Shown here: in pieces, positions 5,717-40,157 of the stretch
How positions within the stretch are numbered: the stretch's first letter is position 1
Layout: every line of letters begins with the position of its first letter
From: Balanoglossus misakiensis
Taxonomy: Eukaryota > Animalia > Hemichordata
Length of the DNA stretch: 64,000 bases
Direction: 5' to 3'
Assembly: GCA_040954595.2 (NCBI GenBank)
Contig: CM082576.2
Coordinates: forward strand, 19,701,028 to 19,765,027
The notes under the pieces: generated by a model
What the model was told of the DNA's origin: nothing
The model's database searches: none
The model's input: only the letters and a program-made list of their open reading frames with translations
Position numbers and translations under genes: made by a program

Positions 5717-8700
5717 TAGCTCTGCATGGGCTGGTTAATCAATGTTGACGCAAAGGTTGACCCTACCAAACACTCAAAATTAATGGGCACGACACTGGCC
5801 ACTAGCTCTGCATGGCCTGGTTAATCAATGTTGACGCAAAGGTTGACCCCACCAAACACTCAAAATTGATGGGCACGACACTGGCCACTAGCTCTGCATG
5901 GCCTGGTTAATCAATGTTGACGCAAAGGTTGACCCCACCAAACACTCAAAATTGATGGGCACGACACTGGCCACTAGCTCTGCATGGCCTGGTTAATCAA
6001 TGTTGACGCAAAGGTTGACCCCACCAAACACTCAAAATTGATGGGCACGACACTGGCCACTAGCTCTGCATGGCCTGGTTAATCAATGTTGACGCAAAGG
6101 TTGACCCCACCAAACACTCAAAATTGATGGGCACGACACTGGCCACTAGCTCTGCATGGCCTGGTTAATCAATGTTGACGCAAAGGTTGACCCCACCAAA
6201 CACTCAAAATTGATGGGCACGACACTGGCCACTAGCTCTGCATGGCCTGGTTAATCAATGTTGACGCAAAGGTTGACCCCACCAAACACTCAAAATTGAT
6301 GGGCACGACACTGGCCACTAGCTCTGCATGGCCTGGTTAATCAATGTTGACGCAAAGGTTGACCCCACCAAACACTCAAAATTGATGGGCACGACACTGG
6401 CCACTAGCTCTGCATGGCCTGGTTAATCAATGTTGACGCAAAGGTTGACCCCACCAAACACTCAAAATTGATGGGCACGACACTGGCCACTAGCTCTGCA
6501 TGGCCTGGTTAATCAATGTTGACGCAAAGGTTGACCCCACCAAACACTCAAAATTGATGGGCACGACACTGGCCACTAGCTCTGCATGGCCTGGCTAATC
6601 AAGGTTGACGCAAAGGTTGACCCCACCAAACACTCAAAATTGATGGGCACGACACTGGCCCCTAGCTCTGCATGGCCTGGCTAATCAAGGTTGACGCAAA
6701 GGTTGACCCCACCAAACACTCAAAATTAATGGGCACGACACTGGCCACTAGCTCTGCATGGCCTGGTTAATCAATGTTGACGCAAAGGTTGACCCCACCA
6801 AACACTCAAAATTGATGGGCACGACACTGGCCACTAGCTCTGCATGGCCTGGTTAATCAATGTTGACGCAAAGGTTGACCCCACCAAACACTCAAAATTG
6901 ATGGGCACGACACTGGCCACTAGCTCTGCATGGCCTGGTTAATCAATGTTGATGCAAAGGTTGACCCCACCAAACACTCAAAATTGATGGGCACGACACT
7001 GGCCACTAGCTCTGCATGGCCTGGTTAATCAATGTTGACGCAAAGGTTGACCCCACCAAACACTCAAAATTGATGGGCACGACACTGGCCACTAGCTCTG
7101 CATGGCCTGGTTAATCAATGTTGACGCAAAGGTTGACCCCACCAAACACTCAAAATTGATGGGCACGACACTGGCCACTAGCTCTGCATGGCCTGGTTAA
7201 TCAATGTTGACGCAAAGTTGACCCCACCAAACACTCAAAATTGATGGGCACGACACTGGCCACTAGCTCTGCATGGCCTGGTTAATCAATGTTGACGCAA
7301 AGGTTGACCCCACCAAACACTCAAAATTGATGGGCACGACACTGGCCACTAGCTCTGCATGGCCTGGTAAATCAATGTTGACGCAAAGGTTGACCCCACC
7401 AAACACTCAAAATTGATGGGCACGACACTGGCCACTAGCTCTGCATGGCCTGGTTAATCAATGTTGACGCAAAGGTTGACCCCACCAAACACTCAAAATT
7501 AATGGGCACGACACTGGCCACTAGCTCTGCATGGCCTGGTTAATCAATGTTGACGCAAAGGTTGACCCCACCAAACACTCAAAATTGATGGGCACGACAC
7601 TGGCCCCTAGCTCTGCATGGCCTGGCTAATCAAGGTTGACGCAAAGGTTGACCCCACCAAACACTCAAAATTAATGGGCGCGACACTGGCCACTAGCTCT
7701 GGCCTGGCTCATCAATGTTGACGCAAAGGTTGACCCCACCAAACACTCAAAATTGATGGGCACGACACTGGCCACTAGCTCTGGCCTGGCTAATCAAGGT
7801 TGACGCAAGGGTTGACCCCACCAAACACTCAAAATTAATGGGCGCAACACTGGCCACTAAGCTCTGGCCTGGCTAATCAATGTTGACGCAGGGGTTGACC
7901 CCACCAAACACTCAAAATTGATGGGCACGACACTGGCCACTAGCTCTGCATGGCCTGGTTAATCAATGTTGACGCAAAGGTTGACCCCACCAAACACTCA
8001 AAATTGATGGGCACGACACTGGCCACTAGCTCTGCATGGCCTGGTTAATCAATGTTGACGCAAAGGTTGACCCCACCAAACACTCAAAATTGATGGGCAC
8101 GACACTGGCCACTAGCTCTGCATGGCCTGGTTAATCAATGTTGACGCAAAGGTTGACCCCACCAAACACTCAAAATTGATGGGCACGACACTGGCCACTA
8201 GCTCTGCATGGCCTGGTTAATCAATGTTGACGCAAAGGTTGACCCCACCAAACACTCAAAATTAATGGGCACGACACTGGCCACTAGCTCTGCATGGCCT
8301 GGTTAATCAATGTTGACGCAAAGGTTGACCCCACCAAACACTCAAAATTGATGGGCACGACACTGGCCACTAGCTCTGCATGGCCTGGCTAATCAAGGTT
8401 GACGCAAAGGTTGACCCCACCAAACACTCAAAATTGATGGGCACGACACTGGCCCCTAGCTCTGCATGGCCTGGCTAATCAAGGTTGACGCAAAGGTTGA
8501 CCCCACCAAACACTCAAAATTAATGGGCACGACACTGGCCACTAGCTCTGCATGGCCTGGTTAATCAATGTTGACGCAAAGGTTGACCCCACCAAACACT
8601 CAAAATTGATGGGCACGACACTGGCCACTAGCTCTGCATGGCCTGGTTAATCAATGTTGACGCAAAGGTTGACCCCACCAAACACTCAAAATTGATGGGC

Positions 8701-10913
8701 ACGACACTGGCCACTAGCTCTGCATGGCCTGGTTAATCAATGTTGACGCAAAGGTTGACCCCACCAAACACTCAAAATTGATGGGCACGACACTGGCCAC
8801 TAGCTCTGCATGGCCTGGTTAATCAATGTTGACGCAAAGGTTGACCCCACCAAACACTCAAAATTGATGGGCACGACACTGGCCACTAGCTCTGCATGGC
8901 CTGGTTAATCAATGTTGACGCAAAGGTTGACCCCACCAAACACTCAAAATTGATGGGCACGACACTGGCCACTAGCTCTGCATGGCCTGGTTAATCAATG
9001 TTGCCGCAAAGTTGACCCCACCAAACACTCAAAATTGATGGGCACGACACTGGCCACTAGCTCTGCATGGCCTGGTTAATCAATGTTGACGCAAAGGTTG
9101 ACCCCACCAAACACTCAAAATTGATGGGCACGACACTGGCCACTAGCTCTGCATGGCCTGGTTAATCAATGTTGACGCAAAGGTTGACCCCACCAAACAC
9201 TCAAAATTGATGGGCACGACACTGGCCACTAGCTCTGCATGGCCTGGTTAATCAATGTTGACGCAAAGGTTGACCCCACCAAACACTCAAAATTAATGGG
9301 CACGACACTGGCCACTAGCTCTGCATGGCCTGGTTAATCAATGTTGACGCAAAGGTTGACCCCACCAAACACTCAAAATTGATGGGCACGACACTGGCCC
9401 CTAGCTCTGCATGGCCTGGCTAATCAAGGTTGACGCAAAGGTTGACCCCACCAAACACTCAAAATTAATGGGCGCGACACTGGCCACTAGCTCTGGCCTG
9501 GCTCATCAATGTTGACGCAAAGGTTGACCCCACCAAACACTCAAAATTGATGGGCACGACACTGGCCACTAGCTCTGGCCTGGCTAATCAAGGTTGACGC
9601 AAGGGTTGACCCCACCAAACACTCAAAATTAATGGGCGCAACACTGGCCACTAAGCTCTGGCCTGGCTAATCAATGTTGACGCAGGGGTTGACCCCACCA
9701 AACACTCATAATTGATGGGCACGACACTGGCCACTAGCTCTGGCCTGGCTAATCAAGGTTGACGCAAGGGTTGACCCCACCAAACACTCAAAATTTATGG
9801 GCACGACACTGGCCACTAAGCTCTGGCCTGGTTAATCAATGTTGACGCAAAGGTTGACCCCACCAAACACTCAAAATTAATGGGCACGACACTGGCCACT
9901 AAGCTCTGGCCTGGTTAATCAATGTTGACGCAAAGGTTGACCCCACCAAACAAAATTAATGGGCACGACACTGGCCACTAAGCTCTGGCCTGGTTAATCA
10001 ATGTTGACGCAAAGGTTGACCCCACCAAACACACAAAATTAATGGGCACGACACTGGCCACTAGCTCTGCATGGCCTGGTTTATCAATGTTGACGCAAAG
10101 GTTGACCCCACCAAACACTCAAAATTGATGAGCACGACACTGGCCACTAGCTCTGCATGGCCTGATTAATCAATGTTGACGCAAAGGTTGACCCCACCAA
10201 ACACTCAAAATTAATGGGCACGACACTGGCCACTAGCTCTGCATGGCCTGGTTAATCAATGTTGACGCAAAGGTTGACCCCACCAAACACTCAAAATTAA
10301 TGGGCACGACACTGGCCACTAGCTCTGCATGGCCTGGTTTATCAATGTTGACGCAAAGGTTGACCCCACCAAACACTCAAAATTGATGGGCACGACACTG
10401 GCCACTAGCTCTGCATGGCCTGGTTAATCAATGTTGACGCAAAGGTTGACCCCACCAAACACTCAAAATTAATGGGCACGACACTGGCCACTAGCTCTGC
10501 ATGGCCTGGTTTATCAATGTTGACGCAAAGGTTGACCCCACCAAACACTCAAAATTGATGGGCACGACACTGGCCACTAGCTCTGCATGGCCTGGTTAAT
10601 CAATGTTGACGCAAAGGTTGACCCCACCAAACACTCAAAATTAATGGGCACGACACTGGCCACTAAGCTCTGGCCTGGCTAATCCAGGTTGACGCAAGGG
10701 TTAACCCCACCAAACACTCAAAATTAATGGGCGCGACACTGGCCACTAAGCTCTGGCCTGGCTAATCAATGTTGACGCAGGGGTTGACCCCACCAAACAC
10801 TCATAATTGATGGGCACGACACTGGCCACTAGCTCTGGCCTGGCTAATCAAGGTTGACGCAAGGGTTGACCCCACCAAACACTCAAAATTTATGGGCACG
10901 ACACTGGCCACTA
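5717..10913. repeat. 86-bp satellite array, left part (about 60 units)
   Basis: Unit tagctctgcatggcctggttaatcaatgttgacgcaaaggttgaccccaccaaacactcaaaattgatgggcacgacactggccac, with starts at 6061 and 6147. Minor 82-83-bp variants lack gcat. Confidence 0.98.
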
Positions 10914-10920
10914 CCCTTAC

Positions 10921-11450
10921 CAAAATCGGGTGCACCCGAAAGGCACCCGAAAGAACACACCCCGGGTGCACCTTTGGTGGCACCCGAAACACACCCCTCA
11001 GAACACACCCGAAACCACCTTAAATTGGTCACTTTAGGTGTGTTTCGGGTGTACAAAACAGGTGCATTATAGGTGCACCCAAAAGGCACCCGAAATAGAA
11101 CACACCCGAGGTGCACCTTAGGTGGCACCTAAAACACACCCGTATGATATGGTATGGATGCACCCGAAACGCACCCGGAACAGCATACTCCGGGTGCACT
11201 TTAGGTGGCACCTAAAACACACCCGTATGATATGGTATGGATGCACCCGAAACGCACCCGGAACAGCATACTCCGGGTGCACTTTAGGTGGCACCTAAAA
11301 CACACCCATATGATATACTATAGTGCACCTGGAGTATGCTGTTCCGGGTGCGTTTCGGGTGCATCCATAATATGTATATGGATGCACCTGAAACGCACCC
11401 GGAACAGCATACTCCAGGTGCACTTAAGGTGGCACCGAAAACACACCTGT
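10921..11450. repeat. Left subterminal repeat region of the EnSpm element (GGTGCACC palindromes, GGCACCYRAAACACACCC motifs, 75-bp tandem units)
   Basis: Repeated gggtgcaccc and ggcacctaaaacacaccc. The same motif is inverted at the right end. Confidence 0.85.
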
Positions 11451-12615
11451 GATACAGTGTTGGTGTATTATTGGCACGCACCTGCAGAAGATCTGATAAA
11501 GGGACTATTGAAAAATGAATATTTTATATGGTACTCTTTATTTACCCCTGAGTTGTCAATCCTTCAATGACAAGGATGACATGAGCAACCTTGTACACAC
11601 CAGAAACAACATGAAATGGTCATTACATTTGAAAAAGTTAAACTCTGCTTTTGCATGGTATATATAAATATAATGATATAAATATATAGTTATCTGTTCT
11701 GATTGTCCAAACAATCCTTTACACACAGTAAAAAGGTAAATATAATGCTTGATGGCTCTTGATAAACTGCGTTATGTGTAGTATATATAAATATAAATGA
11801 TATAAATATATAGTTATAAAACTTCTGATTGTGATGTAAATCTTCACACAATGGAAAAGATGCTTTGAGTAAAACCTTGGCTCACACTTTCACAAGAATG
11901 TAATACGGGATGGAACTGAAAAATGTAGCAAAATATTGACCCGTGGAAACTGCTACATTTGAAATATAATTATGACTAAAATACATTAAAGTATTCCCTA
12001 ATATTTAAAAAATTATGACATATTTTCATGTTGTTACAATGAACTTTAAACTACTTAAAACTCACTACTATTACACACTATTATTCTCCCTCACTTTTAA
12101 GAACTTGAGTATCCCTTTCAAATAACAAATCATCTTATTATTATTATGTTGTGCAAAATTGACAATGTTTACTAAGACTTTAAAACATTGGTAAATGTAT
12201 AAGGAAACTCCTGTGACAAAAAGACAATTTCTACTTCTAAGTGTGGACAGTCTGTGCCTTAAAATCTGTGCCTTAAAATTTATAACTACAAAAATGAATC
12301 ATAACAATAAAAAAATAAAAAAAAAACATTTCACTGTGTTTTAGATGCATGGTAACATACAAGAAATACATGAGAAGTTTACATGGTAAAATAGATTAGC
12401 AAAATTGTTTTATAGAGTATACCATTGCACAACTGGCAGACAACTAATATGACAAAGCAACTTAGACCTGGCATTGTTTTTAATTGGCAAGATAGAAGCT
12501 AGAACAAGCTGTAGGCTGAACGAAGGAGTACTGAACAAGTCATGACTGACCTTGATACAAACAATTTTGTATCTTCTGAGTACTGTTGGAGGCTAGAAAT
12601 GTCAGGAGCTCCTGC

Positions 12616-15600
12616 CTAATTATGTTTTGGCAATATTCTACTTCGTTTGGCCGATATCATATTGCCAATAGACTCATTAATCATGGAATCTGTGGGTCCA
12701 TTAGGTACAGAATGTTCCTGGGAGAATGCTGGAAGAAAACGAGAGAACTAAATTCAAACAATTGAAAAGAAATGAATTAAAGAGGTTGAGAACACAGTAT
12801 GGAGAATATGCTGAATAACATGCTGCAAAGTCATCAGTCATACTCAAATCTCTTAAGCTGAAAGATGACACATTTTCATCAACTTTCAACATCACATTAA
12901 CATAAGTATACATACCTGTATACATGTAGAAAGGCAAATTTTCATCAATGTCATCTGTCATCAATGAAATGAACATATGATTTTAGGAAGACCATACTTT
13001 AGAATGTAATATACTGTATATCTATACATTCATATCAATAAATAACTCACCAAGTATTGAATTTCTGATATCTGGGTCAATGCCCAGTCTTCCATTCATG
13101 CCCTTGACATTCATTGAGACTAGCTCTTCATCAGTGTAGAACACCCGCACCAAAAATCGGGCACATGCAGTGGCCGACTTATTTTTTGCTTTCTGAACTG
13201 CTATTGTTTTCACCTTTGCAGGCAGGAACACCTGATCACCTGGTGTCAATGGTACATACTGGCAAATTAAAAACAGACATGAAAAAGAAATTGAATTATA
13301 AAAAGTGGACAGGCAGAAAGAAGGCAACTTAACCTAACTCAATTGTTCCAAAGACTGTTGTTGACAGCAGAGCCAATAAGTACCACCCGCTTGACAGTAA
13401 GGAGTAGTTTGTAATAGTTCAAGTGAAAATACCTTATGGATAGCTGCCAATTCTTTGTTAATCTTCCCTGGTTTTGGTGGAGATGCGTTATCTATAATTT
13501 CCTCTTCAACGCCTGTAAACATATTTCATTAAAATGGATGACTATGATTTGCATATAGTGAAAAACAAAAGGTACAGACTGTCTTCAATAACATATTGAA
13601 GTATTAAAGTCAAGATAGATTTATTTCACAGGGAAATTCCAGACATGCTTAAAAATTGGATACAGCTTTTCTGAGCAAAAGGACTCACCTGTTCTTTCTG
13701 AAACAGCCAATTTCACTTTCAGGTCAGCATTCTCTCTATTCAGTGTTTTATTTTCTTTCTCCAACATTGTAATTTTGCTGATGTACTTCGGGCATTTCAC
13801 ACATTGCTGGAGTTCTTGCCGAGGACACTGCCGGAATTCTGGCCGAGGACACTTGCCCCCCTGCGTTGGATGCCCTTTTTCATTTACAGGACCAGGTATG
13901 TCATGATCACGTCTGTGGGAGGCGTCATCTGTGTCACTGTCACTGCCATCGCCATCGGACATAGACATTGGTATTTCTTCTTGAGGATCATCAAAACTGA
14001 AAAAAGGGAACAAATCACAATGAATACAACATCAATAACTTTTAACTTTTTATTTAAATTATGCTGATAAATTACCTGTCTCTTGAGATATTGAATTTTC
14101 ACAGTTTTAAGACATGTTGAACTTCACAGGGATCATATTTACTAGAGGGTAAATTCACTAACTTAGTGATATTTTCCACCTTACCTCACATCGAAGAAGC
14201 CACTGTCTGCCATGCTTTGTATTAAAGCGCTGTCTCTTTGAATATTTGCCTTTCTCTGCTCTTCCCTCTCCTTTCTTCTTGAAGCTTCATCTACTTGGTC
14301 AACTTGTTTCTGTGTCACACTGGTCACCTCTTGGTTTGTAGATTTTGACTTCTTGGTTTTTTTTTTACCTTTTGCAGCTGCTTGGTCTGGTACTTTTCGT
14401 TTCTTACTGTTTCCGCTAATTGCTTTTTCTAAATTGGCCTTTATTTTCTGAAGTTCCTCCTTATCATCTGACAAGAAATTAATTTTGAACGTACAGTGAA
14501 TGTAAATGAATTTAATCATCAGTGGCAAGGATGGGAAATTTCATTTGGATGCTAAAATGTCATGACTTGACCAACACAGGAAAATAAAAATAAATATCAA
14601 TGTTGTTTATGTGACATCAGTTCTGAAATAATGAACCTGTGATCCCAAATCTCAGCAAACCAATATGCAGGAAAAGCTGGCTATGCTATTATAATGTACT
14701 TTGGTTCTGCTTTTTCCAACTCTGTACTTTTTTGAAATGTTGATTTTATACAGATGTTCAGAACACCATAATTTTACTCCCCTGTCAACTCCTTTTTACA
14801 AACTTATTTTCCAATATATCGGATGAATCTGTTGTGTTTTTGCACTCATGCTAATGTCAAAAACATATTTGAAAATAAGATTGAATAATATATACATTTA
14901 TGTTGTGTACTTACAGCTTTTGCCTTGCACTAGGCATGGATAGTGCTTCTTATCCAGTGGCCAAATGGCTTGTGTTATGCCTCCAACTGTGTTCACTTCC
15001 TCAGATTTGACAATAAGGAGTGCATTGTCTTCAACAAATTGAACTAGCTGAAATTCTGAAAATGATTGTATAAAACGGACACATTTATTTAAGAATGGCT
15101 GTACATGAACATGTTTAAAACCAACATTTGTTGTTTTTTTCACTCTGGACTGGATAACACGATAGCATGCAAGACTTGCATTGACTATGCAGTGTACATG
15201 CCAATCTTCATTTAAGCTACATGTAAAGCAATGATTTAAATCCTGTTTAAATCGACAGATTGGTGATGTAAATTACTGTTTTGCTGCTGAAAACAAAATC
15301 AGAAAAGGCGCCTACCTTTTTGACATCACTAATTGCCCCTAAAAATCGATATCATGGGTGGTCTGCAGGGTACAAGTGTTCTGCAGACGCGCGGACACAT
15401 GACATGACCTCCAAGAAAAGTTGCTCTGCCGTTGTCAAGTTTAGATAAGGTGTTGCGACCGGAACGCTGAGCTGCGTTATTTGTTGCAATTTCTGCGTGT
15501 TGCTGGCTATGACGCTAGGACGCCTGTCTAAAGATAGCTGGTGTACTGAATGCAAGGGGCAACGCGTACTGTTTGGCGTTTTACGATGTTTCAATCGTCT

Positions 15601-15755
15601 ATACTGGTAAAATGTGATCGTGACTCGCGGTTTTCAAGGAGTTTCCAGGAGAAAATTTTGAATTTCTAGGAGATTCCAGGAGCATGAAACTGCATAATCA
15701 TCTTACCTTGGTCACCGAAGCTTGTCTTAGCTGTCCTTGAACGCTTAGTAGGCAT
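12616..15755 (-). CDS. Transposon accessory protein with C-terminal BEN domain, 7 exons, 393 aa
   Basis: Exons 15755-15707, 15055-14915, 14467-14185, 13996-13689, 13512-13433, 13258-13051, 12728-12616. All introns are GT-AG with matching phases, total 1182 nt, no internal stops. C-terminus SATACARFLVRVFYTDEELVSMNVKGMNGRLGIDPDIRNSILAF...MINESIGNMISAKR matches the BEN pattern. A coiled coil (LEKENKTLNRENADLKVKL) lies upstream. Confidence 0.85.
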
Positions 15756-16211
15756 CACGGAACTGTAAACAGGAAAATTGAAACGATTGAGGAGCTTTCA
15801 AGGAGACGTACAATGGCGTTTTCTGATTTATCTGGACGTTTTCATGTTTGGCGCGTGATCGTGACCTAGATTAGTAGATAGTGAACTCTAAACCGATTGG
15901 ATGAATTTGACCTCTCTGTAAATTTTCGATCGCTGAAGAGTGTCTCCCTCTTTGAATTTCAGATCTGTCGTGCTATATCTGTTCAGATGAGCAATATTTT
16001 ATTTTCTCTTCAATAATTCGAAGCATATCAAGTGTAAACGACAACTTCAAATGCATAAATAAGGATAATTTACCCCCGCCTTTACCCAGCAACACTTGCG
16101 ATAAACAAGCGCCATATTGGAAAGGTCAACTTTAGTACACTGACTGACGATCAAGGACGTCGCATCTTTCACTTACTGTGCACTGAGCTTAGCCACTCGG
16201 CAATTGGAAAA
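15756..16211. promoter_or_regulatory. Putative bidirectional promoter between the BEN gene and the transposase
   Basis: 456 bp between head-to-head start codons. CpG-rich, with an inverted CCAAT (gattgg ~15895), YY1-like aatggcg (~15812) and gccatatt (~16111). Confidence 0.5.
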
Positions 16212-19200
16212 ATGGCAGAAAGACAAGAAGAGAAGTCAAGAAGAAAGAGGGGAGTTTACATGAGTTACCTCAATGATCCTTCGATTCCAATTCCGCGTAC
16301 GACAGCAAAAAGATGGTCATCAAACTCCGGTGAAGGCCCCAGTACTAGTAGTGCCGGCGACTTATCCTTTGTCTCGGAAGGCCCGCGCCCCAGTACTAGT
16401 GGTGCCGGCGACTTATCCTTTGTCTCGGAAGGCCCCAGTACTAGTAGTGCCGGCGACTTATCCTTTGTCTCGGACATCGACTCAAGCAGTCCACCGACTC
16501 CAGGCAATTCAAGCGAGTGTGGGCTGACCGACCTTTTCGATACACAGGACAACACATGTGCTTTCGACGACGATACAACTGAAACGGGACGTACTACCGG
16601 TATGCAACCAATGGACGCTGAATTGGATACGGATGCAATCCACCATTTTGGATCTGGTTCTGACTTGTGGGGTAAATACCTCGACGATTTTGATGAAGAT
16701 ATGGAAAATGAAGCGTCTGATACTGGTGAAGTACTTAGCGATTCTAGTGAAGATATTTCAACACCTAACGACAAAGAAGGTGACGATCAACGTCTATACG
16801 CTGGAGCTCCCCTTACAGTCGGCATTACTATGCTCCTTATTATGTCATTTGCTATTCGACATAATCTAACTGGTTCTGCATTGACGGACTTACTAACTTT
16901 AATCGAGTTGCATTGCATCACACCTAATTTGTGTAGAAAGAGTATGAAAATGTTCCATGAGTTCTTCAGAGCATTAAAGTCTCCAATTGAAAGACATTAT
17001 TTCTGTACGCATTGCCATGGGTATATTGGACGAGAAGTGGGCCCCGTTTGCCCTGTTTGCTCTAAAAGCACAGTTGAGAAGAAGTCAACAAGCTACTTTA
17101 TTGTGTTACCAGTGCTCAGCCAACTTCAAAGTATACTTTCAAGTAAGTCAATCTTTTATCATTTTTATATGTTTCTTTTTTGTGCAAGAATGCAATCTGT
17201 ATGTTGTTTGTTTTTCTTTGTTGTTGTTGTTTTTTTTGCTCATGAATGCTACAACATACATAAATGTAATACCAATCATAATTGTAATCATTGCTTAAAA
17301 AAGTATAATTATTGGCATGCAGGCACTCTTGTCCTTGATTGTTTAGTGGCATTTTATCAAAGTTCCATGAATGTTGGCATATCTTGTACCCATTTATTGT
17401 CACTTTGTATATTTTGTCTTGCCTTACAAATTCATTTCTTTTATTGATAGGAGATGGTATGTTGGAGAAAATGGCTTATCGGTCAAAGAGGAACAAGCAA
17501 TCAAATGGGCACATAAGTGATGTTGTGGATGGTTTGCTGTACAAAAAGCACTTCAGTGAAGATGGATTTTTCCATGGCACATCAACTCAGCAGAAACAGA
17601 CTGAACTTCATCTATCGTTCCAAATGAATTTTGATGGTGTTTCACTATTCCGTTCATCCAAATTCTCAATATGGCCAGTGTATTACACTTTAAATGAACT
17701 TTCACCCACAGAGAGGTATGCATTAATATTATAATAAACTTTGAAGTTATTGAATTTCATTGTACAAGTCTAAACTCTAATGTACCGGGACATGATGAAG
17801 ATGTAGTGTTAGGAACTATACAAAGAATGTTCATAATGTTGAATTCCATTTAATGTTACATTTGACAAGTAGACATGTGGTTGTAAAATATTAAGTACCA
17901 GTACCACAATTGACTTGTTTGAGTAATAATAATTGACACTTTTTTTCCTTAGATTTCAGAGAAAGAACAGAATATTTGCTGGAATTTGGTTTGGGTTCAG
18001 GAAACCCGAATGTGGAACATTCCTGAAGCCTTTTGCATTGTCATTTATAGATATGTATGAAAAAGGTATGTCTGTCTGTCTTTCCTTTGTATTGTTATAG
18101 ACACAGTCCCTCCACACACGGTCGAGAAACAGAGTGCATTCTATTGTCTAGATGCACGTTGCGATTATGTTACAATGTACTTTGTTTATTCGGACGGTGA
18201 GATTATCGGAACATAGTTTATTTGCCTACCTGGCTTGAGGGACATTCCTGAAGTTGGCCTCATCGTCATCTTCACATGAACTTTCAAGCTGAGGATGAGG
18301 ATAAGGCTTACTTCACGTACGTGTTTGAGGGACTGTGTTCAATGTAAGGAAGAGACGTAGAATTCATTTGCATCGGATCAGCATATGCAATGATGTCATT
18401 TTCCCCCAGGATTTTCATGATTTATTTAGCACATGTGTGCAAAATTTCTGTGTACTGTTGTTGTTATTGATGTAGAAATGTCGTTTAAGATAAGTCTCTA
18501 CACCAACACATCGATTTGTGACTCTTATTCTACCCCTGACCTTGTCGATAAGAACGCGAACCAGGAAGACATTATAGAAAGTGACCCAGCTCGTTGAGTG
18601 TGTGATCGAAGGCAGTGCATTTGTAGAGCATCCTTTCTGTTTGACGGCAATCACTGTGCTGATGTAGTAAATTGTTTTTTTTCCTATATCTCTCAAATTT
18701 AGGCATGCAAGTAGAAATACCAGCAGACAACAAAAGAATAACAGTAAAGGCCATATTATTAAGTGCCGTGTTTGATGCCCCAGCCAGAGGTTTGTTTATG
18801 GAATGCAACCAGTTCAATGGTATGTTTGGCTGCCCATATTGCCTATCTCCAGGTGAAACTGTGAAGACAAGTGAAAGAGGTCATATGCGTGCCTACCCCT
18901 TTGATAGAGAGAACCCTGCTTCTGGACATGGAGAAGAACGGACTCACAAATCAACACTTCAGTTTGCAAAGGAAGCTGCCAATGCCAGAAAAACTGGAAA
19001 GATATCTGCTGTTATGGGTGTAAAAAACATAAGTTGGTTTTTGTATGTCCCAAAGTTTGATATGATTAATGGCATAGGGTCTGATTACATGCATTGTGTC
19101 TGCCTAGGAATTATGAAGATGCTGCTAACTTTATGGACTGACAAAGCTCATAAAGCCCAACCATGGTACATTGGTAATAAATTGCATGTACTTGACAAAA

Positions 19201-20306
19201 ATCTACTGCATATAAAACCCCCCCACATGATTAGCAGAGCTCCAAGAGGTTTGTCAAATGAACTGGCCCACTGGAAGGCATCAGAGTTCAGGAGTTTTCT
19301 TCTATATTACTCAATCCCAATTTTATGGAAAATACTGCCCGAGGATTACTTCCACCATTTCTGTTTGTTAGTAGAGGGCATATATTTATTACTACAGACA
19401 TCAATTTCATCAGGAGACTTAAAGAAGTCATCAGGCCTTCTCAGGCATTTTTCATTCAAGATTGAAAGTTTATATGGGAAGCGATACCAAACTTCCAACA
19501 TGCACATGTTGCTTCACTTTGTACATCGAGTTCGATGTTTAGGCCCGCTATGGGCAATGTCATGCTTCTTTTATGAAGACTGCAATGGTCAACTTAGAGA
19601 CCTCTGTCATGGTACTCAAAGCATCCAAGAACAAATTGTAACAGCTGTTTGCATCCAACAACAAATCCCACGACTCGAATCCAATCTTACAAGTGGTTCT
19701 GCCGCTGAAGATTTTTATGACAAAATTACTGGAGGTCGCAAAGTTGGTCACAACAAAACCAAAATTGGGAGTGGTCTCTTTGTTGTTGGAGCAGTTGTTG
19801 ACAGACAGGTACCAGAGTCAGAACGCACATGTCTTGAAAGATCCGTTGGACCTGTGAAGTCAATCTCTACATTCAAGCGCATTGCTATTAACAACACAGT
19901 GTTAATACATAGTAAGGATTATAAACCAGTTACGCGGAGAAACAGCTACACCATTCAGTTTACAGAACAACTTGGGAGCGTTGCATATGGACAAGTTAGA
20001 TATTATGCCGTGTGCAAACGTTTTTGTCCAAGTGAAATCTTGTGTAACAAATCATGTGAATGTCAAACACCCTTGTATGTTGCCATTGTGGATAAATTCA
20101 AAGTCAGGAATGACCTTAAGGCATCCCTTCTGCAGGATGATATTACACAGACAACTCTAAATCACATCATTGCCGTAGATAAGGATGATAAAGAGCTTGT
20201 GTGCGTAGACCTAAGAAGAATTGTACAGTGTTGCATTTTTGTAGATTGTAACAGAAGTGAATGTTGCTTTGTTTGCCTATGCCCCAACACTGTTGAAAAG
20301 GATTAA
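16212..20306 (+). CDS. EnSpm/CACTA-type DDE transposase, 4 exons, 970 aa
   Basis: Exons 16212-17142, 17451-17715, 17953-18065, 18703-20306. GT-AG, in phase, 2913 nt. Motifs HYFCTHC..CPVC, MNFDGVSLFRSSKFSIWPVY, IFAGIWFGFRKP, FDAPARG, GMFGCPYC, DYMHCVCLG, WKASEFRSFLLYY, NMHMLLH, GPLWAMSCFFYED. Confidence 0.93.
18101..18338. mobile_element. Small MITE-like inverted repeat inside transposase intron 3
   Basis: acacagtccctccacacacg at 18101 versus cgtgtttgagggactgtgt ending at 18338. Confidence 0.5.
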
Positions 20307-20814
20307 ACTTTGTCAAATTGGGGATATTTGTTATGAATGTATGTTTTTGGCGATTAAGACCGACAGCCAGATTAATATAGAATAAGCCATTAATACATCA
20401 TGAAAACTTCATTCAACCATAATAAAGATATTACCTATGTACTGTACATGATCTGTCTCATTGTTATGAATATTGTTTTATGTGTGGGTCAAACATCCAT
20501 CACCATGGCTCAAGAATATTACTGTTCTCATCCTCCTTAGTGTCTGGGCCTATTTCCAACAGGAAAGGCTGCAGTCCTTACCTAGCACTCACTATTACTT
20601 TCAAATTAGGATTATTGTAGTGGACAAACCCATAAGGGCTTTTTGGGAGGGGGGGGGGGGTACTGGACTGTGTCTCAGTATATTCCAGCGATAGAACACG
20701 CAAAAAGATGGATGAACACTTCGGCCGCTGAGCATACATGTAGGGTCTGTTAGCAATCTGATTAAAATCCGATGTGTTACGCGGCTTTCCTCTATTTACC
20801 TACCTCTGCTTCTT

Positions 20815-21570
20815 CGTGTTGGGTGCCTTCATCACTATTCCTGAAGTGAAAAAGTTGCTAAGTCTAAAGCGGGTGTCTTTTGGGTGCCTTCCTGAAGTGA
20901 AAAAGTTTCTAAGTCTAAAGTGGGTGTGTTTTGGGTGCCTTCCCCATGTGGATAAGTTTCTAAGTCTAAAGCGGGTGTGTTTTGGGTGCCTTCCCAATGT
21001 GGATAAGTTTCTAAGTCTAAAGCGGGTGTGTTTTGGGTGCCTTCCCAATGTGGATAAGTTTCTAAGTCTAAAGCGGGTGTGTTTTGGGTGCCTTCCCAAT
21101 GTGGATAAGTTTTTAAGTCTAAAGCGGGTGTGTTTTGGGTGCCTTCCCAATGTGGATAAGTTTCTAAGTCTAAAGCGGGTGTGTTTTGGGTGCCTTCCCA
21201 ATGTGGATAAGTTGCAAAGTTGAAAGCGGGTGTGTTTTGGGTGCCTTCCCAATGTGGATAAGTTGCGAAGTCGAAAGCGGGTGTGTTTTGGGTGCCTTCC
21301 CGATGTGAAAAACTTGCTAAGTCTAAAGCGGGTGTGTTCTTGGTGCCTTAACGGCAAGTGCTGATTTCAGGAGGTGTATTTCGGGTGCACCCGTAAGACA
21401 CCTATTCAGTTCATGTGGTAGGGGTGGATTTCGGGTGGGTTAGACCACCCACCCAAAACCCACCCCATCTTACAGTGGTGTGTTTTAGGTAGGTTACGGG
21501 TGGGTCTAAGTGCAATTGGTGTGTTTTGGGTGTATTTTAGGTGCACCCGAGGTGCACCCGAGCACTCGGA
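20815..21570. repeat. Right subterminal repeat region: 51-bp tandem repeat (about 10 copies) plus GGTGCACC palindromes
   Basis: Unit gggtgtgttttgggtgccttcccaatgtggataagtttctaagtctaaagc. Its core is the reverse complement of the left-end motif. Confidence 0.9.
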
Positions 21571-21583
21571 AATTTGGTAAGGG

Positions 21584-22012
21584 TAAGCTCTGGCCTGGTT
21601 AATCAATGTTGACGCAAAGGTTGACCCCACCAAACACTCAAAATTAATGGGCACGACACTGGCCACTAGCTCTGCATGGCCTGGTTTATCAATGTTGACG
21701 CAAAGGTTGACCCCACCAAACACTCAAAATTGATGGGCACGACACTGGCCACTAGCTCTGCATGGCCTGGTTAATCAATGTTGACGCAAAGGTTGACCCC
21801 ACCAAACACTCAAAATTACTGGGCACAACACTGGCCACTAGCTCTGCATGGCCTGGTTAATCAATGTTGACGCAAAGGTTGACCCCACCAAACACTCAAA
21901 ATTAATGGGCACGACACTGGCCACTAGCTCTGCATGGCCTGGTTAATCAATGTTGACGCAAAGGTTGACCCCACCAAACACTCAAAATTAATGGGCACGA
22001 CACTGGCCACTA
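21584..22012. repeat. 86-bp satellite array, right part (about 5 units)
   Basis: The same unit resumes exactly at the transposon end and finishes at ggccac-tacatgta. Confidence 0.97.
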
Positions 22013-32899: not shown

Positions 32900-35300
32900 C
32901 TATTCATAGTCTTCCAGGTAAGTCGGACGGCGTCTTTCTCTCTGCGGACGGAGTCTCCTTTCCGGTGATTTTGTTGGTGTTGGGTTTGGTTTTCGCGGAC
33001 TATCACAAACTGTTTCCATCCCCTGTTGCTGGTTAGGTGGGTTTACATCTTCCTCATCATGGTTGGTATTAAGGAGTAGATTTTCTCGCCAGTCCCTCGC
33101 ATTTCGTTTTCCGGTTGCATCATATATGAACATTTCCTCCTCAAGATCTTGTACTACTGCGTTCACAAGTTTGAACTTGCTCGCATCACGATATACTTCC
33201 CTTCCATCTGTTATACGTCTCGCTGCAATGCTTGAACCATCAATTCTGTATACTCTGTAGAATGTTGGCTCATATGCGGTTGACCATTTGTTTCTTTTCT
33301 GTTGTTTCAGTAGAACATAGTCTCCCACGATGAAATTGTGTGGCTTCACATTTCTCTTTTCTGTTGCTCGTCTGATCTTCTCTTTGTATTCTCTGTCTCT
33401 CTCATCGATTGCATCATCTTTCATTGTCTTCTGGTCATCTCTTGTGTGGTGGTCTAGTTTGGTTCTGACCTGTCTGTTCATCATTGCTTCATACGGTGCT
33501 GTATTTGTAGCTGGGTGCGGTGATGAACGGTATCCTGTCAGCATATCTTGAATGGCTATTTCTCTGTCCTTGCCTTCCAAGTGTGCGATTCTCTCAGTTT
33601 TATTCAGCATCTTCATGAAATTTTCAGCTTCTCCATTGGCTCTCGCATGTTCTGGTGTTACGTTATGGTGGTGAAATCCCTCTTCCTTTGCGAAGTTGGT
33701 GAATTCTTCTGAATCAAAGGGTGGGCCATTGTCACTCTCCAACTGTCTGGGTGTGCCATGTGTAGCGAACATTTTCTTGAGTTTTCTCTTTGTGGGTTTC
33801 GCTGCTGTTGAATATACAGTTTCAACTTCTGGGTATCTTGTTCTCTTGTCGATGGCTACCAGGTTGTAGTGTCCATCAGGATATGGTCCTCCAAAGTCCA
33901 CTGATATTACTTCCCATGGTTTCTCTGGTATTGGTGTCATCTTGACAGGTTCTTGTTTGTGTTGCTTCGTCGTTACTTGACATTCGAAGCATTGACCTAT
34001 CATCTGCTCGACGTAGCTGTTCATCATCGGAAACCAATATTTCTCTCGCAACATCTGCTTGGTCTTCGTCATGCCCAAATGACCTAGCTTGTGTGCTGAT
34101 TTGATGACTTTTCTCTGCAGACTGCGTGGAATCACGATGCGGTTGATTCTGAGTATCAGGTCGTCTACCATGCTCAGCTATTGTCTTACTGTGTAAAACG
34201 GGTTGATGTCTGGGTCTTTCTTGTGCTTCTCCCAGTTGCCTCTTCGTATGACTCTGCTCAGTTTCTGTAGTTGACTGTCTTTCTTCGTTTCTTCTTTGAT
34301 ACGGTCTAGCACAACAGCATATTCTGTTTCTATCACTTTCTTGATTGTTTTCTCTGTACCATCTCTTCCTGTTTCAGGTAGTGGGTGTCTGGACAAGAAA
34401 TCCAGTGGGTCAGCAGCATCTTTGCCTGGCTCATAGAGTAGCTCATAATCGACATCTTGCATTTCCATTACCCATTTCTCTATCCTGGGTGGTAGTTTCA
34501 TGGTAGCTTTGTTGAACATTGGGATGAGCGGTTTATGTGCTGTGATGATTCTGAATCTGGGTGCTCCCAACAGATATATGCGGAATCTGTTCTTCGCCCA
34601 TTTCACTGCTAAAGCATCTTTCTCAGTCTGGCTGTATCTTTTCTCAGCGCTTGTCAAAGTGCGACTGATGAAGTGAACTGGTCTCAGGCCTTTCTCACTC
34701 TGCTGGAAAAGTCCTGCTGACAGTCCTTCATGGTAACTAGCTTCTACTCTTACTGTGATGGGTTTCGATGGGTTGAAGTAAGCCATAGTATCTTCATTTG
34801 TGATACTGTCTTTGAGGTTCTGGAAAGCTGCGTTTTCCTTCTGTCCCCATCTGAAATGGACATCTTTGTGAGTAAGCTCTCTCAGGGGTGCTGTCAGTGA
34901 TGTGTACCGTGGTATGAACTTCGAGAGATATCCGATCATTCCCAGGAAGCTTCTCACTGCCTCCTTGGATTTTGGTGCTTTGCATTCTTTCACAGCTCGG
35001 ACTTTCTCTGGTGTTGGCTTGGTTTGTCTGTATTGTCTCACTTTTGCGACACTTCTCTCACCTGACTGTTTCATATCACGCATTTGTAGTGAGGTGTCCT
35101 CCATTTGCGCTGCTTCAGTCAGTAACTGAGTAAGAGACCATTTCTTGTTTATTGCTTTCTGTATCAGGGTGCAATTGTCAATTGTCTGGATGATATGTTC
35201 CAGAATTCTCTCTTCACAACTCGTGCCGAATTCACACTCGTTGGCTTTTTCTCTCAATCTGGCTGCGTATGCGACAGTGCTTTCATTTGTTGTCGGAGTC
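32900..35300 (-). pseudogene. Duplicated gag fragment fused to RT-thumb/RNase H/integrase, with a premature stop at 34178
   Basis: 35300-35020 copies gag 39440-39160, then jumps at a cttg microhomology to pol ~37590. Offset from the full copy is 2568 bp. GAG>TAG after YTVRQ. Confidence 0.92.
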
Positions 35301-35467
35301 AATATCAAATTGAATAAAGGTATGTCCATCGGTATAAATGTTCCTGTCTTTTTTTTTTCATGCAATTTTCACTTTCAATACGAATTCGAAATAGAATAAA
35401 ATATGGAACAATAAACTCGAACATTGTTTTTGTCATTGTCAGTTTTCCATAGCCTAGCTATCGCCTG

Positions 35468-38400
35468 CTATTCATAGTCTTCCAGGTAAGTCGGACGGCG
35501 TCTTTCTCTCTGCGGACGGAGTCTCCTTTCCGGTGATTTTGTTGGTGTTGGGTTTGGTTTTCGTGGACTATCACAAACTGTTTCCATCCCCTGTTGCTGG
35601 TTAGGTGGGTTTACATCTTCCTCATCATGGTTGGTATTAAGGAGTAGATTTTCTCGCCAGTCCCTTGCATTTCGTTTTCCGGTTGCATCATATATGAACA
35701 TTTCCTCCTCAAGATCTTGTACTACTGCGTTCACAAGTTTGAACTTGCTCGCATCACGATATACTTCCCTTCCATCTGTTATACGTCTCGCTGCAATGCT
35801 TGAACCATCAATTCTGTATACTCTGTAGAATGTTGGCTCATATGCGGTTGACCATTTGTTTCTTTTCTGTTGTTTCAGTAGAACATAGTCTCCCACGATG
35901 AAATTGTGTGGCTTCACATTTCTCTTTTCTGTTGCTTGTCTGATCTTCTCTTTGTATTCTCTGTCTCTCTCATCGATTGCATCATCTTTCATTGTTTTCT
36001 GGTCATCTCTTGTGTGGTGGTCTAGTTTGGTTCTGACTTGTCTATTCATCATGGCTTCGTACGGTGCTGTATTTGTAGCTGGGTGTGGTGATGAACGGTA
36101 TCCTGTCAGCATATCTTGAATGGCTATTTCTCTGTCCTTGCCTTCCAAGTGTGCGATTCTCTCAGTTTTATTCAGCATCTTCATGAAATTTTCAGCTTCT
36201 CCATTGGCTCTCGCATGTTCTGGTGTTACGTTATGGTGGTGAAATCCCTCTTCCTTTGCGAAGTTGGTGAATTCTTCTGAATCAAAGGGTGGGCCATTGT
36301 CACTCTCCAACTGTCTGGGTGTGCCATGTGTAGCGAACATTTTCTTGAGTTTTCTCTTTGTGGGTTTCGCTGCTGTTGAATATACAGTTTCAACTTCTGG
36401 GTATCTTGTTCTCTTGTCGATGGCTACCAGGTTGTAGTGTCCATCAGGATATGGTCCTCCAAAGTCCACTGATATTACTTCCCATGGTTTCTCTGGTATT
36501 GGTGTCATCTTGACAGGTTCTTGTTTGTGTTGCTTCGTCGTTACTTGACATTCGAAGCATTGACCTATCATCTGCTCGACGTAGCTGTTCATCATCGGAA
36601 ACCAATATTTCTCTCGCAACATCTGCTTGGTCTTCGTCATGCCTAAATGACCTAGCTTGTGTGCTGATTTGATGACTTTTCTCTGCAGACTGCGTGGAAT
36701 CACGATGCGGTTGATTCTGAGTATCAGGTCGTCTACCATGCTCAGCTCTTGTCTTACTGTGTAAAACGGGTTGATGTCTGGGTCTTTCTTGTGCTTCTCC
36801 CAGTTGCCTCTTCGTATGACTCTGCTCAGTTTCTGTAGTTGACTGTCTTTCTTCGTTTCTTCTTTGATACGGTCTAGCACAACAGCATATTCTGTTTCTA
36901 TCACTTTCTTGATTGTTTTCTCTGTACCATCTCTTCCTGTTTCAGGTAGTGGGTGTCTGGACAAGAAATCCAGTGGGTCAGCAGCATCTTTGCCTGGCTC
37001 ATAGAGTAGCTCATAATCGACATCTTGCATTTCCATTACCCATTTCTCTATCCTGGGTGGTAGTTTCATGGTAGCTTTGTTGAACATTGGGATGAGCGGT
37101 TTATGTGCTGTGATGATTCTGAATCTGGGTGCTCCCAACAGATATATGTGGAATCTGTTCTTCGCCCATTTCACTGCTAAAGCATCTTTCTCAGTCTGGC
37201 TGTATCTTTTCTCAGCGCTTGTCAAAGTGCGACTGATGAAGTGAACTGGTCTCAGGCCTTTCTCACTCAGCTGGAAAAGTCCTGCTGACAGTCCTTCATG
37301 GTAACTAGCTTCTACTCTTACTGTGATGGGTTTCGATGGGTTGAAGTAAGCCATAGTATCTTCATTTGTGATACTGTCTTTGAGGTTCTGGAAAGCTGCG
37401 TTTTCCTTCTGTCCCCATCTGAAATGGACATCTTTGTGAGTAAGCTCTCTCAGGGGTGCTGTCAGTGATGTGTACCGTGGTATGAACTTCGAGAGATATC
37501 CGATAATTCCCAGGAAGCTTCTCACTGCCTCCTTGGATTTTGGTGCTTTGCATTCTTTCACAGCTCGGACTTTCTCTGGTGTTGGCTTGAGTCCATCTTT
37601 CGTGAATCGGTATCCGTAGAATTCAATCTCCTCAACTCCAAATTTGCATTTGTCAAGGTTGAATGTGATCCCGAAATCCTGTGCTCTCTGTAGGACTGTT
37701 TCTAGTGTTTTGTTGTGTTCTTCTGCTGAACGGCCTCCCAAGAGGATGTCATCGCGTTGGTTGAGACATCTTGGTATGTCACCAAATATTCTGTATATTG
37801 TCTCGTCAAACAAATCTTGTGATGACTTGGCTCCAAAGATCAGTCGTTTCAGCCTCATGTTGCCCCATGGTGTGCTGAAAGTTGCTACTGCTCGAGATTC
37901 TGGATCTAGCAAGAGTTGGTGATATCCCTGCCTCATATCAAGCTTGGAGAATATCACACAGTCGTTGAACTTGTGCTCAAAATCTTCCACTATTGGGCTC
38001 TGGGTGATTCTGTTTCTCTCCATGTACTGGTTTGGTACTCTCAAGTCTACACTTGCTCTGATCATGTGTGGCTCTAGGTTTTCCCTTGGTGTCTCATGGA
38101 ATCTTGGTTTTGGTTGTACTACAAGGGGTGAACACCATGTCACTGGTTCTCCTTGTGGAACTTCTTCAAAGATTTCTTCTTGTATACAGTGCTCCAGCCA
38201 TTTCTTTAGTGGTTTCTGCAGGTAGTATGCCACAGGTCTGGGTTTCTGGGCTACTGGTACTGCTTCTTGCTTCATGCTGAACTTGGCATAAATTTCTCTA
38301 TCATTCTTCATATCTCTTATTCTTCCAATTCCCTGGAATACATTTCCATATTTCTCTGTTATCTCTTTCACTTGTTTGTCCAGTATTTCACTCTTCACTG

Positions 38401-39799
38401 TTTTGATGTCTTGATTTTCTTTTATTCGTAGATTGTTGACCTCTGTCAGCGATCCATCTGGTTTTATTTGCATCATACCCAATTCAGTTAGTGTGTTCCT
38501 GCTCAGCAGTGGTGGTGAATTTATCCTACCTCTGACTACGATGAACTTGGCTTTCACTCCACAGGTTTTGTTTCTCACTATGGTAGAGAATTTGCCTTTC
38601 ACTGGTAATCGATCTTGCAAAGTGTTTAGCTTTGTGTGACTGTCCCGTAGTTTGATCTCATCGCTGGATCTGTGTTGTAATGCTTTGAACTGATGTTCAT
38701 CCATGACATTTACCTCAGCTCCGGTGTCAGGTTCCATCTGTGCATCAACATCATTTATTCTGACTGTGACAGTTTTTCCTGTGTAAGTTTCATTTCCTCT
38801 TTTGATACCTTTGACGTGTTTGATTGCATGCTCAAAATAGTCGTCATCTGAACTTGTAGTGCTGTCTTGCTCTTTTGTTGAAGTTTTCTTTATTCTTCTC
38901 TGCTGTTTTCTATAGTCACTTTTCTCTTGGGCACTGCTAGGTGTCTTTCTGCTTCTATACCCTGTGTCTTTACTTCCTCTGTCTGGATCTGCTCTACACA
39001 CAGAAGCGAAGTGGTTTCTCTTTTGGCATTTCCTGCATTGTTTACCAAAAGCAGGGCAGTTCTGTCCTTCTTTATGAACTCCAGTCAGTCCACAATATGT
39101 ACACTGTTTACCATCATGTGCAGGTGTCTGTTTTCTTTTCTCGGGTTTTCCGTGTTTCTTGGTTTGTCTGTATTGTCTCACTTTTGCGACACTTCTCTCA
39201 CCTGACTGTTTCATATCACGCATTTGTAGTGAGGTGTCCTCCATTTGCGCTGCTTCAGTCAGTAACTGAGTAAGAGACCATTTCTTGTTTATTGCTTTCT
39301 GTATCAGGGTGCAATTGTCAATTGTCTGGATGATATGTTCCAGAATTCTCTCTTCACAACTCGTGCCGAATTCACACTCGTTGGCTTTTTCTCTCAATCT
39401 GGCTGCGTATGCGACAGTGCTTTCATTTGTTGTCGGAGTCATTTTGAGAAATAAATACCTTGCGTGGTGTTTATTCTTCTTTGGCGTGTAGTACTCATTT
39501 AGTTTCGTTTTCAACTTCTCATAGACGTTTTCTCCCTCTGTGGGGTCAGGTAAACTTTTCTCGAGTCTCGCTATCTCTTTTCCTCCATAGATTATCATGG
39601 CGTCTTTCTTATCGATAGGTTCTGTTATTCTGAAGTATCGAAATTCTCGTTCGATGCCCTCCAACCATTCCTCCCAAGCTTTGCCTGTTGTGATCTGATC
39701 ATCGGTGTGCACAAAAGGTTGGCATTTGAGGTTTCTCGTGTCTGTAACCACGGTTATTGCTGCTGGGGGTGCCGCCATTTTGTCAGTTCTATCAGTCAC
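35468..39799 (-). CDS. Gag-Pol polyprotein (double CCHC knuckle, protease, RT, RNase H, integrase), 1443 aa
   Basis: CTYC..H..C and CRKC..H..C knuckles; protease DTGA; RT KLDMRQGYHQL, LIFGAKSS, QRDD; integrase HKLGH..CFEC, SVDF, SDNG, NGEAE. Confidence 0.96.
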   Translation of the reverse strand: MTDRTDKMAAPPAAITVVTDTRNLKCQPFVHTDDQITTGKAWEEWLEGIEREFRYFRITEPIDKKDAMIIYGGKEIARLEKSLPDPTEGENVYEKLKTKLNEYYTPKKNKHHARYLFLKMTPTTNESTVAYAARLREKANECEFGTSCEERILEHIIQTIDNCTLIQKAINKKWSLTQLLTEAAQMEDTSLQMRDMKQSGERSVAKVRQYRQTKKHGKPEKRKQTPAHDGKQCTYCGLTGVHKEGQNCPAFGKQCRKCQKRNHFASVCRADPDRGSKDTGYRSRKTPSSAQEKSDYRKQQRRIKKTSTKEQDSTTSSDDDYFEHAIKHVKGIKRGNETYTGKTVTVRINDVDAQMEPDTGAEVNVMDEHQFKALQHRSSDEIKLRDSHTKLNTLQDRLPVKGKFSTIVRNKTCGVKAKFIVVRGRINSPPLLSRNTLTELGMMQIKPDGSLTEVNNLRIKENQDIKTVKSEILDKQVKEITEKYGNVFQGIGRIRDMKNDREIYAKFSMKQEAVPVAQKPRPVAYYLQKPLKKWLEHCIQEEIFEEVPQGEPVTWCSPLVVQPKPRFHETPRENLEPHMIRASVDLRVPNQYMERNRITQSPIVEDFEHKFNDCVIFSKLDMRQGYHQLLLDPESRAVATFSTPWGNMRLKRLIFGAKSSQDLFDETIYRIFGDIPRCLNQRDDILLGGRSAEEHNKTLETVLQRAQDFGITFNLDKCKFGVEEIEFYGYRFTKDGLKPTPEKVRAVKECKAPKSKEAVRSFLGIIGYLSKFIPRYTSLTAPLRELTHKDVHFRWGQKENAAFQNLKDSITNEDTMAYFNPSKPITVRVEASYHEGLSAGLFQLSEKGLRPVHFISRTLTSAEKRYSQTEKDALAVKWAKNRFHIYLLGAPRFRIITAHKPLIPMFNKATMKLPPRIEKWVMEMQDVDYELLYEPGKDAADPLDFLSRHPLPETGRDGTEKTIKKVIETEYAVVLDRIKEETKKDSQLQKLSRVIRRGNWEKHKKDPDINPFYTVRQELSMVDDLILRINRIVIPRSLQRKVIKSAHKLGHLGMTKTKQMLREKYWFPMMNSYVEQMIGQCFECQVTTKQHKQEPVKMTPIPEKPWEVISVDFGGPYPDGHYNLVAIDKRTRYPEVETVYSTAAKPTKRKLKKMFATHGTPRQLESDNGPPFDSEEFTNFAKEEGFHHHNVTPEHARANGEAENFMKMLNKTERIAHLEGKDREIAIQDMLTGYRSSPHPATNTAPYEAMMNRQVRTKLDHHTRDDQKTMKDDAIDERDREYKEKIRQATEKRNVKPHNFIVGDYVLLKQQKRNKWSTAYEPTFYRVYRIDGSSIAARRITDGREVYRDASKFKLVNAVVQDLEEEMFIYDATGKRNARDWRENLLLNTNHDEEDVNPPNQQQGMETVCDSPRKPNPTPTKSPERRLRPQRERRRPTYLEDYE

Positions 39800-39950
39800 G
39801 TAGCACTGATCGACACTATATGTACGTCACACTCACGTTCGGCAGATCTGGCGGTTACGGATGTGTAATTTCTGGGTCGGCTCTCGCTGGGAAATGGTTT
39901 GAGTCTGTCACCATGCATTTATGGTTGCTCCGCTTTGCGTTCTGTGGATC

Positions 39951-39968
39951 GTTTGATCCTCGTCGCCA
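39951..39968 (-). other. Primer-binding site, complementary to the 3' end of tRNA-Ser(GCU)
   Basis: Minus strand reads TGGCGACGAGGAT one base after the LTR. Eukaryotic tRNA-Ser(GCU) ends ATCCTCGTCG-CCA. Confidence 0.75.
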
Positions 39969-39969
39969 T

Positions 39970-40157
39970 TGTAATGTCCCCGACTATGAATCAAATAGAC
40001 TTATTCACCGTTGTATGGCTTCTAACATCTCGCCATGTTAACTTTATTAACAACAACACAACTACTGCGCATGGGCAGGTAACGTACCGCGCATGGCATG
40101 TACAGAATGCAGCTGGCCATACTGAAAGTATATTTTGTTATATGTCTGGATATTACA
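39970..40157 (-). repeat. 5' LTR (188 bp)
   Basis: Matches 32324-32511 and is followed by TSD gcatg. Confidence 0.97.

Follow-up and report, generated by a model that had tools for sequence, protein, structure and literature searches.

The 64-kb stretch of Balanoglossus DNA analysed here (the window) carries a transposon of 10,670 bp (10914–21583), which ends in 11-bp inverted repeats starting with CCC and is flanked on both sides by a duplicated TA. Such CCC-starting repeats with a 2-bp duplication are as in animal CACTA/EnSpm (TRC) transposons, of which they are typical according to PMC1636069. Two genes lie head-to-head within the element: a transposase gene on the plus strand (16212–20306; exons 16212–17142, 17451–17715, 17953–18065 and 18703–20306), which has an open frame of 970 aa, and an accessory gene on the minus strand (12616–15755). 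When the transposase exons were scanned separately against Pfam, sub-threshold matches to DUF1258 (E 1.7e-4) and DUF4218 (E 0.1) were obtained, with no match to Transposase_21; we take the DUF1258 and DUF4218 families, and the DxMH motif, to belong with EnSpm. The disordered N-terminus of the transposase contains a 45-bp triple repeat (16332–16474) that keeps the frame.

Both ends of the element are repetitive. The left end (10914–11424) holds sub-terminal repeats and GGTGCACC palindromes, and the right end (20852–21583) holds 51-bp repeats and further GGTGCACC palindromes. All seven copies of this palindrome in the window fall at the element ends, alongside 83-bp and 51-bp repeats, and they are candidate binding sites for the BEN-type domain described below. 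The insertion is hosted by an array of an 86-bp satellite (5717–10913, resuming at 21591–22012), and the satellite setting of the element given in the earlier note on this DNA is that of this one copy. The same satellite is very abundant among the sample reads.

The accessory gene has seven exons (15755–15707, 15055–14915, 14467–14185, 13996–13689, 13512–13433, 13258–13051 and 12728–12616) with GT-AG junctions and an open frame of 393 aa. The model is collinear over all exons with an NCBI protein from Ptychodera flava (P0001), which confirms it. Exon 1 encodes a basic N-terminal stretch of 16 residues (15708–15755), 12 of which are kept in P0001; it could possibly be another short docking motif, and it breaks the rule for H3 N-terminal mimics given in PMC8166343. 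Exon 2 (14915–15055) encodes the core of a small beta domain, N-terminal in the protein, which belongs to no Pfam family and is common to two coral-like metagenome loci (L001 and L004) and to protein clusters bearing BEN and DUF4806 domains. This domain resembles unnamed clusters and one cluster named BEND6-like, and more weakly Tudor-containing clusters. Exon 4 (13689–13996) comprises an acidic linker, the motif discussed below and a CxxC (13803–13792) that leads into a predicted coiled coil (13690–13803 for CxxC and coil together). A short conserved block, P-x-P-G-K (13433–13492), precedes the C-terminal domain in 6/6 aligned sequences.

Exons 6 and 7 (12616–13258) were assigned to a BEN-fold domain from P0001, which is 64% identical in exon 6. 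In an alignment-based model of P0001 the coil and the C-terminal domain are confident and the linker up to the motif has low confidence. The four top VIA matches of this model are all BEN domains (NACC1, Z 8.9, rmsd 3.4 over 84 aligned residues; Bsg25A, 7.8; BANP, 7.7; BEND6, 6.1), as are all of the top 10 Foldseek matches, though with E above 0.001, which together predict a BEN fold for the C-terminal domain of this homologue. P0001 scores 21.8 bits against the Pfam BEN family PF10523 (gathering cut-off 23.2); the Balanoglossus accessory exons, scanned separately, gave no BEN match in Pfam, and a single-sequence structure model gave no usable fold match. Like the host proteins NACC1, BANP, Bsg25A and BEND6 (PMC11472053), the accessory protein would have a C-terminal BEN fold after a coiled coil, and its N-terminal domain is like that of the BEND6-like cluster; these proteins differ in being encoded by host genes and are only 9–17% identical over the fold.

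At the end of the linker, directly ahead of the CxxC and coiled coil, stands HPTQGGKCPR (13843–13872, minus strand), which resembles residues 8–17 of histone H3. The part of it reported earlier, TQGGKCPR, is indeed encoded by exon 4 (13866–13843, within ORF 13621–14031) and forms residues 202–209 of the protein. H3 reads TGGKAPR at residues 11–17 (sequence of PDB peptides); in register, the codon at 13854–13852 is equivalent to K14, and the motif T and Q stand opposite S10 and T11 of H3, respectively. The placement of the motif in a disordered linker agrees with the model of P0001, where pLDDT is below 50 over residues 189–225 and the motif spans 218–227. Taken alone, the Balanoglossus match is weak: its best identity to H3 8–17 is 5/10, which is reached in 5.6% of 3,000 linker shuffles, so that this single match is not beyond chance. 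The pattern GGKxPR, picked post hoc, arose in 77 of 200,000 whole-protein shuffles, and the motif peptide as sole query against the PDB returned nothing at E up to 10.

The second half of the motif (KCPR onward) opens a tandem duplication of 24 bp (13807–13854), with 20 of 24 bases alike, in which the second copy has Q in place of K. An origin of the motif in this duplication was ruled out, as P0001 carries the motif without the duplication. One metagenome locus (L016, 544–640) has two motif-like copies in tandem ahead of the CxxC, which, with the Balanoglossus duplication, suggests a motif prone to local doubling. A role for the motif cysteine as a third zinc ligand was likewise ruled out; this residue varies, and a Saccoglossus homologue (P0045) keeps the motif without the CxxC.

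Homologues were sought with several queries. The BEN exon (exon 6) as sole query gave 15 proteins, a profile search gave 34 proteins from 6,570 candidates, and a metagenome scan with an alignment of the BEN exon gave 16 loci. Word-index searches with exon 4 alone or exon 6 alone returned no match, the transposase as query recovered no metagenome locus, and no relative was found in viral contigs. Among the 45 proteins, the linker is reached in five (P0001, P0007 from Exaiptasia, P0013 from Ptychodera, P0018 and P0045), and all five have the aligned block. Another 39 were left out as pieces of the BEN exon or as beginning nine residues or fewer from the CxxC, and P0005, a triple-repeat protein of different build without the motif, was left out of the counts. 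Seven of the 16 loci include the linker, six are too short, one (L009) begins at the CxxC and two (L003 and L005) lack the exon; the motif lies ahead of the CxxC-coil in all seven that include the linker. With the exception of L016, the BEN exons of the loci resemble named coral proteins closely (up to 89–90%). A transposase N-terminus on the opposite strand, head-to-head as in Balanoglossus, is also present in L001, L003 and L006. P0001, P0007, P0013 and the loci were chosen on the BEN exon only, whereas P0018 and P0045 were not found blind to the motif, since the first rows of the search profile contain it. Merging near-duplicates left nine lineages with a readable linker, which share ancestry and thus represent one origin, not nine tests; column counts use 11 sequences.

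Aligning these linkers revealed a block, [RH]-P-T-x-G-G-K-x-P-R, ahead of the CxxC or coiled coil in 9/9 readable lineages, from acorn worms, a sea anemone and coral-like DNA, with flanks that are mostly unalignable. K-x-P-R is kept in eight of the nine. The earlier note had proposed a comparison of GGKxPR with its flanks among homologues, and that comparison speaks for constraint on the block, which lies in a region predicted to be disordered and exposed. The columns hold R/H in 10 of 11 sequences, P in 11, T in 9, G12 in 9, G13 in 8, K in 10, P16 in 9 and R in 10; the residue after K varies (C in six, R in two, and V, T and S). Between Balanoglossus and P0001, 15 of 18 residues are identical at aa 196–213, against 37% identity over aa 65–195 and 42% in the coil that follows. 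A Gibbs search blind to H3 found the block in 9/9 linkers and scored 244.7 on eight sequences, compared with 169.8 ± 3.0 (maximum 176.3) in 40 shuffles, which were given fewer starts. At the codon level, the loci L008 and L010 differ in the motif by six silent and one replacement differences in 11 codons, and in the BEN exon by 17 silent and 17 replacement differences in 67 codons. Selection very probably acts on the motif.

There are exceptions. In P0013, K is replaced by P and R by A, P0001 (the closest homologue) has A at G12, P16 is lost in L006 and P0018, and M or K replaces G13 in L001, L006 and L016. G-K-X-P occurs in Balanoglossus and in five more of the nine lineages; it is broken in P0013, and in the L001 group and L016 through the change at G13. 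K and R stand three residues apart in 10 of 11 sequences, which would form a K-X-X-R site of the BAZ2 reader type if the lysine is acetylated.

The likeness to H3 is carried by the family. A 22-column profile of the 11 sequences was compared with the PDB (E up to 10), and the best 60 of 84 matches are all H3 or H3 fusions, in register; a profile of five metagenome loci, made without the Balanoglossus copy, gave 127 matches of which the best 60 are all H3 (residues 2–20), again in register, with a best E of 0.0022 and full-length H3 at E 0.13–0.16, where the profile columns were centred on the motif by choice and short H3 peptides are plentiful in the PDB. Control profiles of the P-x-P-G-K block and of a lysine-rich cluster gave no match and one non-histone match, respectively, and no histone. 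Six of the nine lineages reach 6/10 identities to H3 8–17, as do 0.03–0.2% of their own shuffles; because the lineages share an ancestor, this counts as one event, and P0001 reaches only 4/10. Judged from these sequences, the likeness to the H3 tail is beyond chance at the level of the family and not for the Balanoglossus copy by itself, so the caution that the match could be chance was apt for the single copy and does not extend to the family. The first half of the block in the form P-T-T-G-G also fits H3 30–34, and the block reads as a hybrid of both G-G segments of the H3 tail.

The position of K9 is occupied by proline in 11/11 sequences. A mimic of H3K9 of the G9a/SETDB1 type, ARK(S/T), was thereby ruled out, since no methylatable K9 is present. 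The P-T at positions 9–10 is conserved as well as the H3-like residues, and this P is unlike H3. The earlier suggestion of H3 mimicry, as a lure around K14 for acetyltransferases or readers with a putative anti-silencing or targeting role, stands in part: conservation against the flanks and the preference of the family profile for H3 argue for it, whereas the change of G12 to A in the closest homologue, the loss of K and R in one Ptychodera paralogue and the lack of any K9 mimicry argue against. Mimicry of the H3K14 region, with lure and sink uses taken together, is plausible and, in our estimate, somewhat favoured.

The reading that we prefer, at a probability of roughly 40%, is that an accessory protein of an animal CACTA/EnSpm-type element bears a conserved look-alike of H3 8–17 that acts as bait, on the DNA of the element itself, for the host H3K14 machinery. 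The protein would be held at the element ends by its BEN domain, through binding to the repeats there, and would dimerise through the CxxC-coil. The lysine of the exposed tail would be acetylated by GCN5/PCAF through G-K-X-P and then read by K14ac readers (KacXXR), and this recruitment would keep open the element ends and the promoter between the two genes, while the proline at the K9 position would spare the tail a silencing methyl mark. Our estimate for a tethered K14-acetylation substrate or bait is based on the fit of the kept residues to both types of partner: G-K-X-P is the substrate motif of GCN5 (PMC4964394), and BAZ2B recognises K14ac, P16 and R17, a K-X-X-R site (PMC4291147).

The same tail could be put to the opposite use, as a decoy for silencing enzymes that takes up the K14 ubiquitin or acetyl mark and occupies SUV39/Clr4-type enzymes or SETDB1 while being unmethylatable at P9. 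The invariant proline would suit such a role, as would the satellite setting of the Balanoglossus copy, and suitable enzymes exist: H3K14ub binds Clr4 tightly and stimulates it, and also stimulates SUV39H2 (PMC8443253), and the Tudor domains of SETDB1 recognise K14ac in combination with K9me and bind to repeats (PMC5727127). Reading by SETDB1, however, needs the methyl-K9 that the motif lacks, a few tethered tails would be a poor sink against bulk H3, and the satellite setting is that of one copy; we consider this use quite unlikely. It is also unlikely that the block resembles H3 by accident and acts as a dock within the machinery of transposition, where its partner would be the transposase, the N-terminal domain of the same protein or a kinase that recognises R-x-T. 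Here the invariant P and near-invariant T, which are not copies of H3, would be accounted for, the P-x-P-G-K block ahead of the BEN domain is conserved despite having no histone likeness, and plant TnpA contacts TnpD (PMC1636069; modelled in PMC13547354). Such docking leaves unexplained why the best 60 of 127 matches to the five-locus profile are H3 in register and why six lineages approach H3 as closely as they do, and the motif would be free to drift if its partner co-evolved with the element. A complex prediction for the N-terminal domain and motif of P0001 scored 0.00, which favours no reading.

A nuclear import signal, whether convergent with or taken from the H3 signal that importin-4/Kap123 reads, appears improbable. 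The same H3 segment does double as an import signal, and Kap123 binds H3 K14 with small residues required on both sides (PMC5677370), which G-K-C fits in part. This requirement is violated, however, where the lysine is followed by R, V or T or preceded by M or K; a second conserved lysine at constant spacing is absent, and lysine-rich clusters are already present in exon 3, likewise in P0001, L001 and L008. Neutral coincidence, in which a G/K/P/R-rich linker and local duplication produced the match, is very improbable. In its favour are the weakness of the Balanoglossus match by itself, the position of the motif at the opening of a tandem duplication and its loss in P0013. It is largely refuted by the Gibbs search, the column conservation and the codon differences between L008 and L010, where silent changes are in excess; P0001 has the motif without the duplication, and the block has survived although hemichordate and cnidarian-type BEN exons share only 32–46% identity (leaving out P0045 against P0007, which overlap briefly).

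Known histone mimics include the ARKT motif of G9a and motifs of SETDB1, which are H3K9-like, and influenza NS1, which is H3K4-like (PMC8166343; bioRxiv 10.1101/2025.01.21.634156). Like these, the putative mimic described here is a short H3-tail-like sequence that lies in a disordered stretch of a protein of chromatin type and is better conserved than its flanks; it differs in being centred on K14–R17, in having proline for K9 and in being transposon-borne. Among transposon proteins the nearest parallel is plant TnpA of Spm/CACTA, also the second protein of a CACTA-superfamily element (PMC1636069); like TnpA, the accessory protein is likely a binder of sub-terminal repeats and a regulator of its element. 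TnpA is described as having tandem tri-helical HTH domains that bind DNA, as reported only in flowering plants and as acting via DNA demethylases (PMC1636069; bioRxiv 10.64898/2026.08.24.746577), whereas the accessory protein has a predicted BEN fold at its C-terminus, is divergently transcribed and bears an H3-like motif. VANC of Arabidopsis VANDAL elements is likewise an accessory protein that a transposon encodes, and its element carries repeated candidate targets for it (PMC5735166). By description, however, it belongs to the Mutator superfamily of plants and removes DNA methylation, no homology with the Balanoglossus accessory protein is expected, and the abstract mentions no histone mimic. 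The animal TRC/EnSpm element SmTRC1 shares the CCC-starting inverted repeats and 2-bp duplication and derives its additional proteins from a single alternatively spliced unit, in contrast to the separate opposite-strand gene of the Balanoglossus element (PMC1636069). Taken more broadly, the chances appear evenly balanced that an old, widespread animal CACTA family stays active in heterochromatin by hijacking H3K14 signals, acetylation or ubiquitin, through a K9-less H3 tail that its BEN protein anchors on the element DNA; such a protein would parallel TnpA and VANC in animals, by a mechanism of its own.

We found no earlier description of a BEN protein of EnSpm elements, or of the present motif, in literature searches that included alternative spellings of the motif and the combination of BEN domain, EnSpm and transposon; these did not reach subscription papers, Repbase notes, figures or the supplements of preprints. 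No such case is named in the extracts of PMC13547354, PMC12342192, PMC8166343, PMC11472053 and bioRxiv 10.1101/2025.01.21.634156, and neither a BEN protein nor a mimic appears in the extracted text of bioRxiv 10.64898/2026.08.24.746577 (2026), which surveyed 962 Spm proteins, though its figures may show BEN accessory proteins. The described mimics that we found centre on K4 or K9; a K14-centred mimic that excludes K9 would be new if the reading as bait or decoy is true. To our knowledge, the resistance of animal DNA transposons to silencing is a largely open question, and the anti-silencing proteins so far known are from plants. The H3 tail is nearly invariant, so the motif could be assayed with human or fly enzymes. 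Ten residues, for which nature has already supplied loss-of-function variants (Q for K in the Balanoglossus duplicate and P for K in P0013), offer a cheap and direct test, and the motif could, if the reading is true, reveal the K14 reader or writer that is important at repeats.

Two further observations concern the sample and the remainder of the window. A second copy of the accessory gene, about 90% alike, is present in the same sample (matching 13869–14110), on a contig that stops at 13869, just short of the motif; in run X1, exon 4 of this copy has a 6-base insertion and a 6-base deletion that keep the frame. Outside the element, about 7 kb of the window (33001–40000) is strongly T-skewed, with an AT skew down to -0.42, which could possibly reflect a long minus-strand coding or repeat region.
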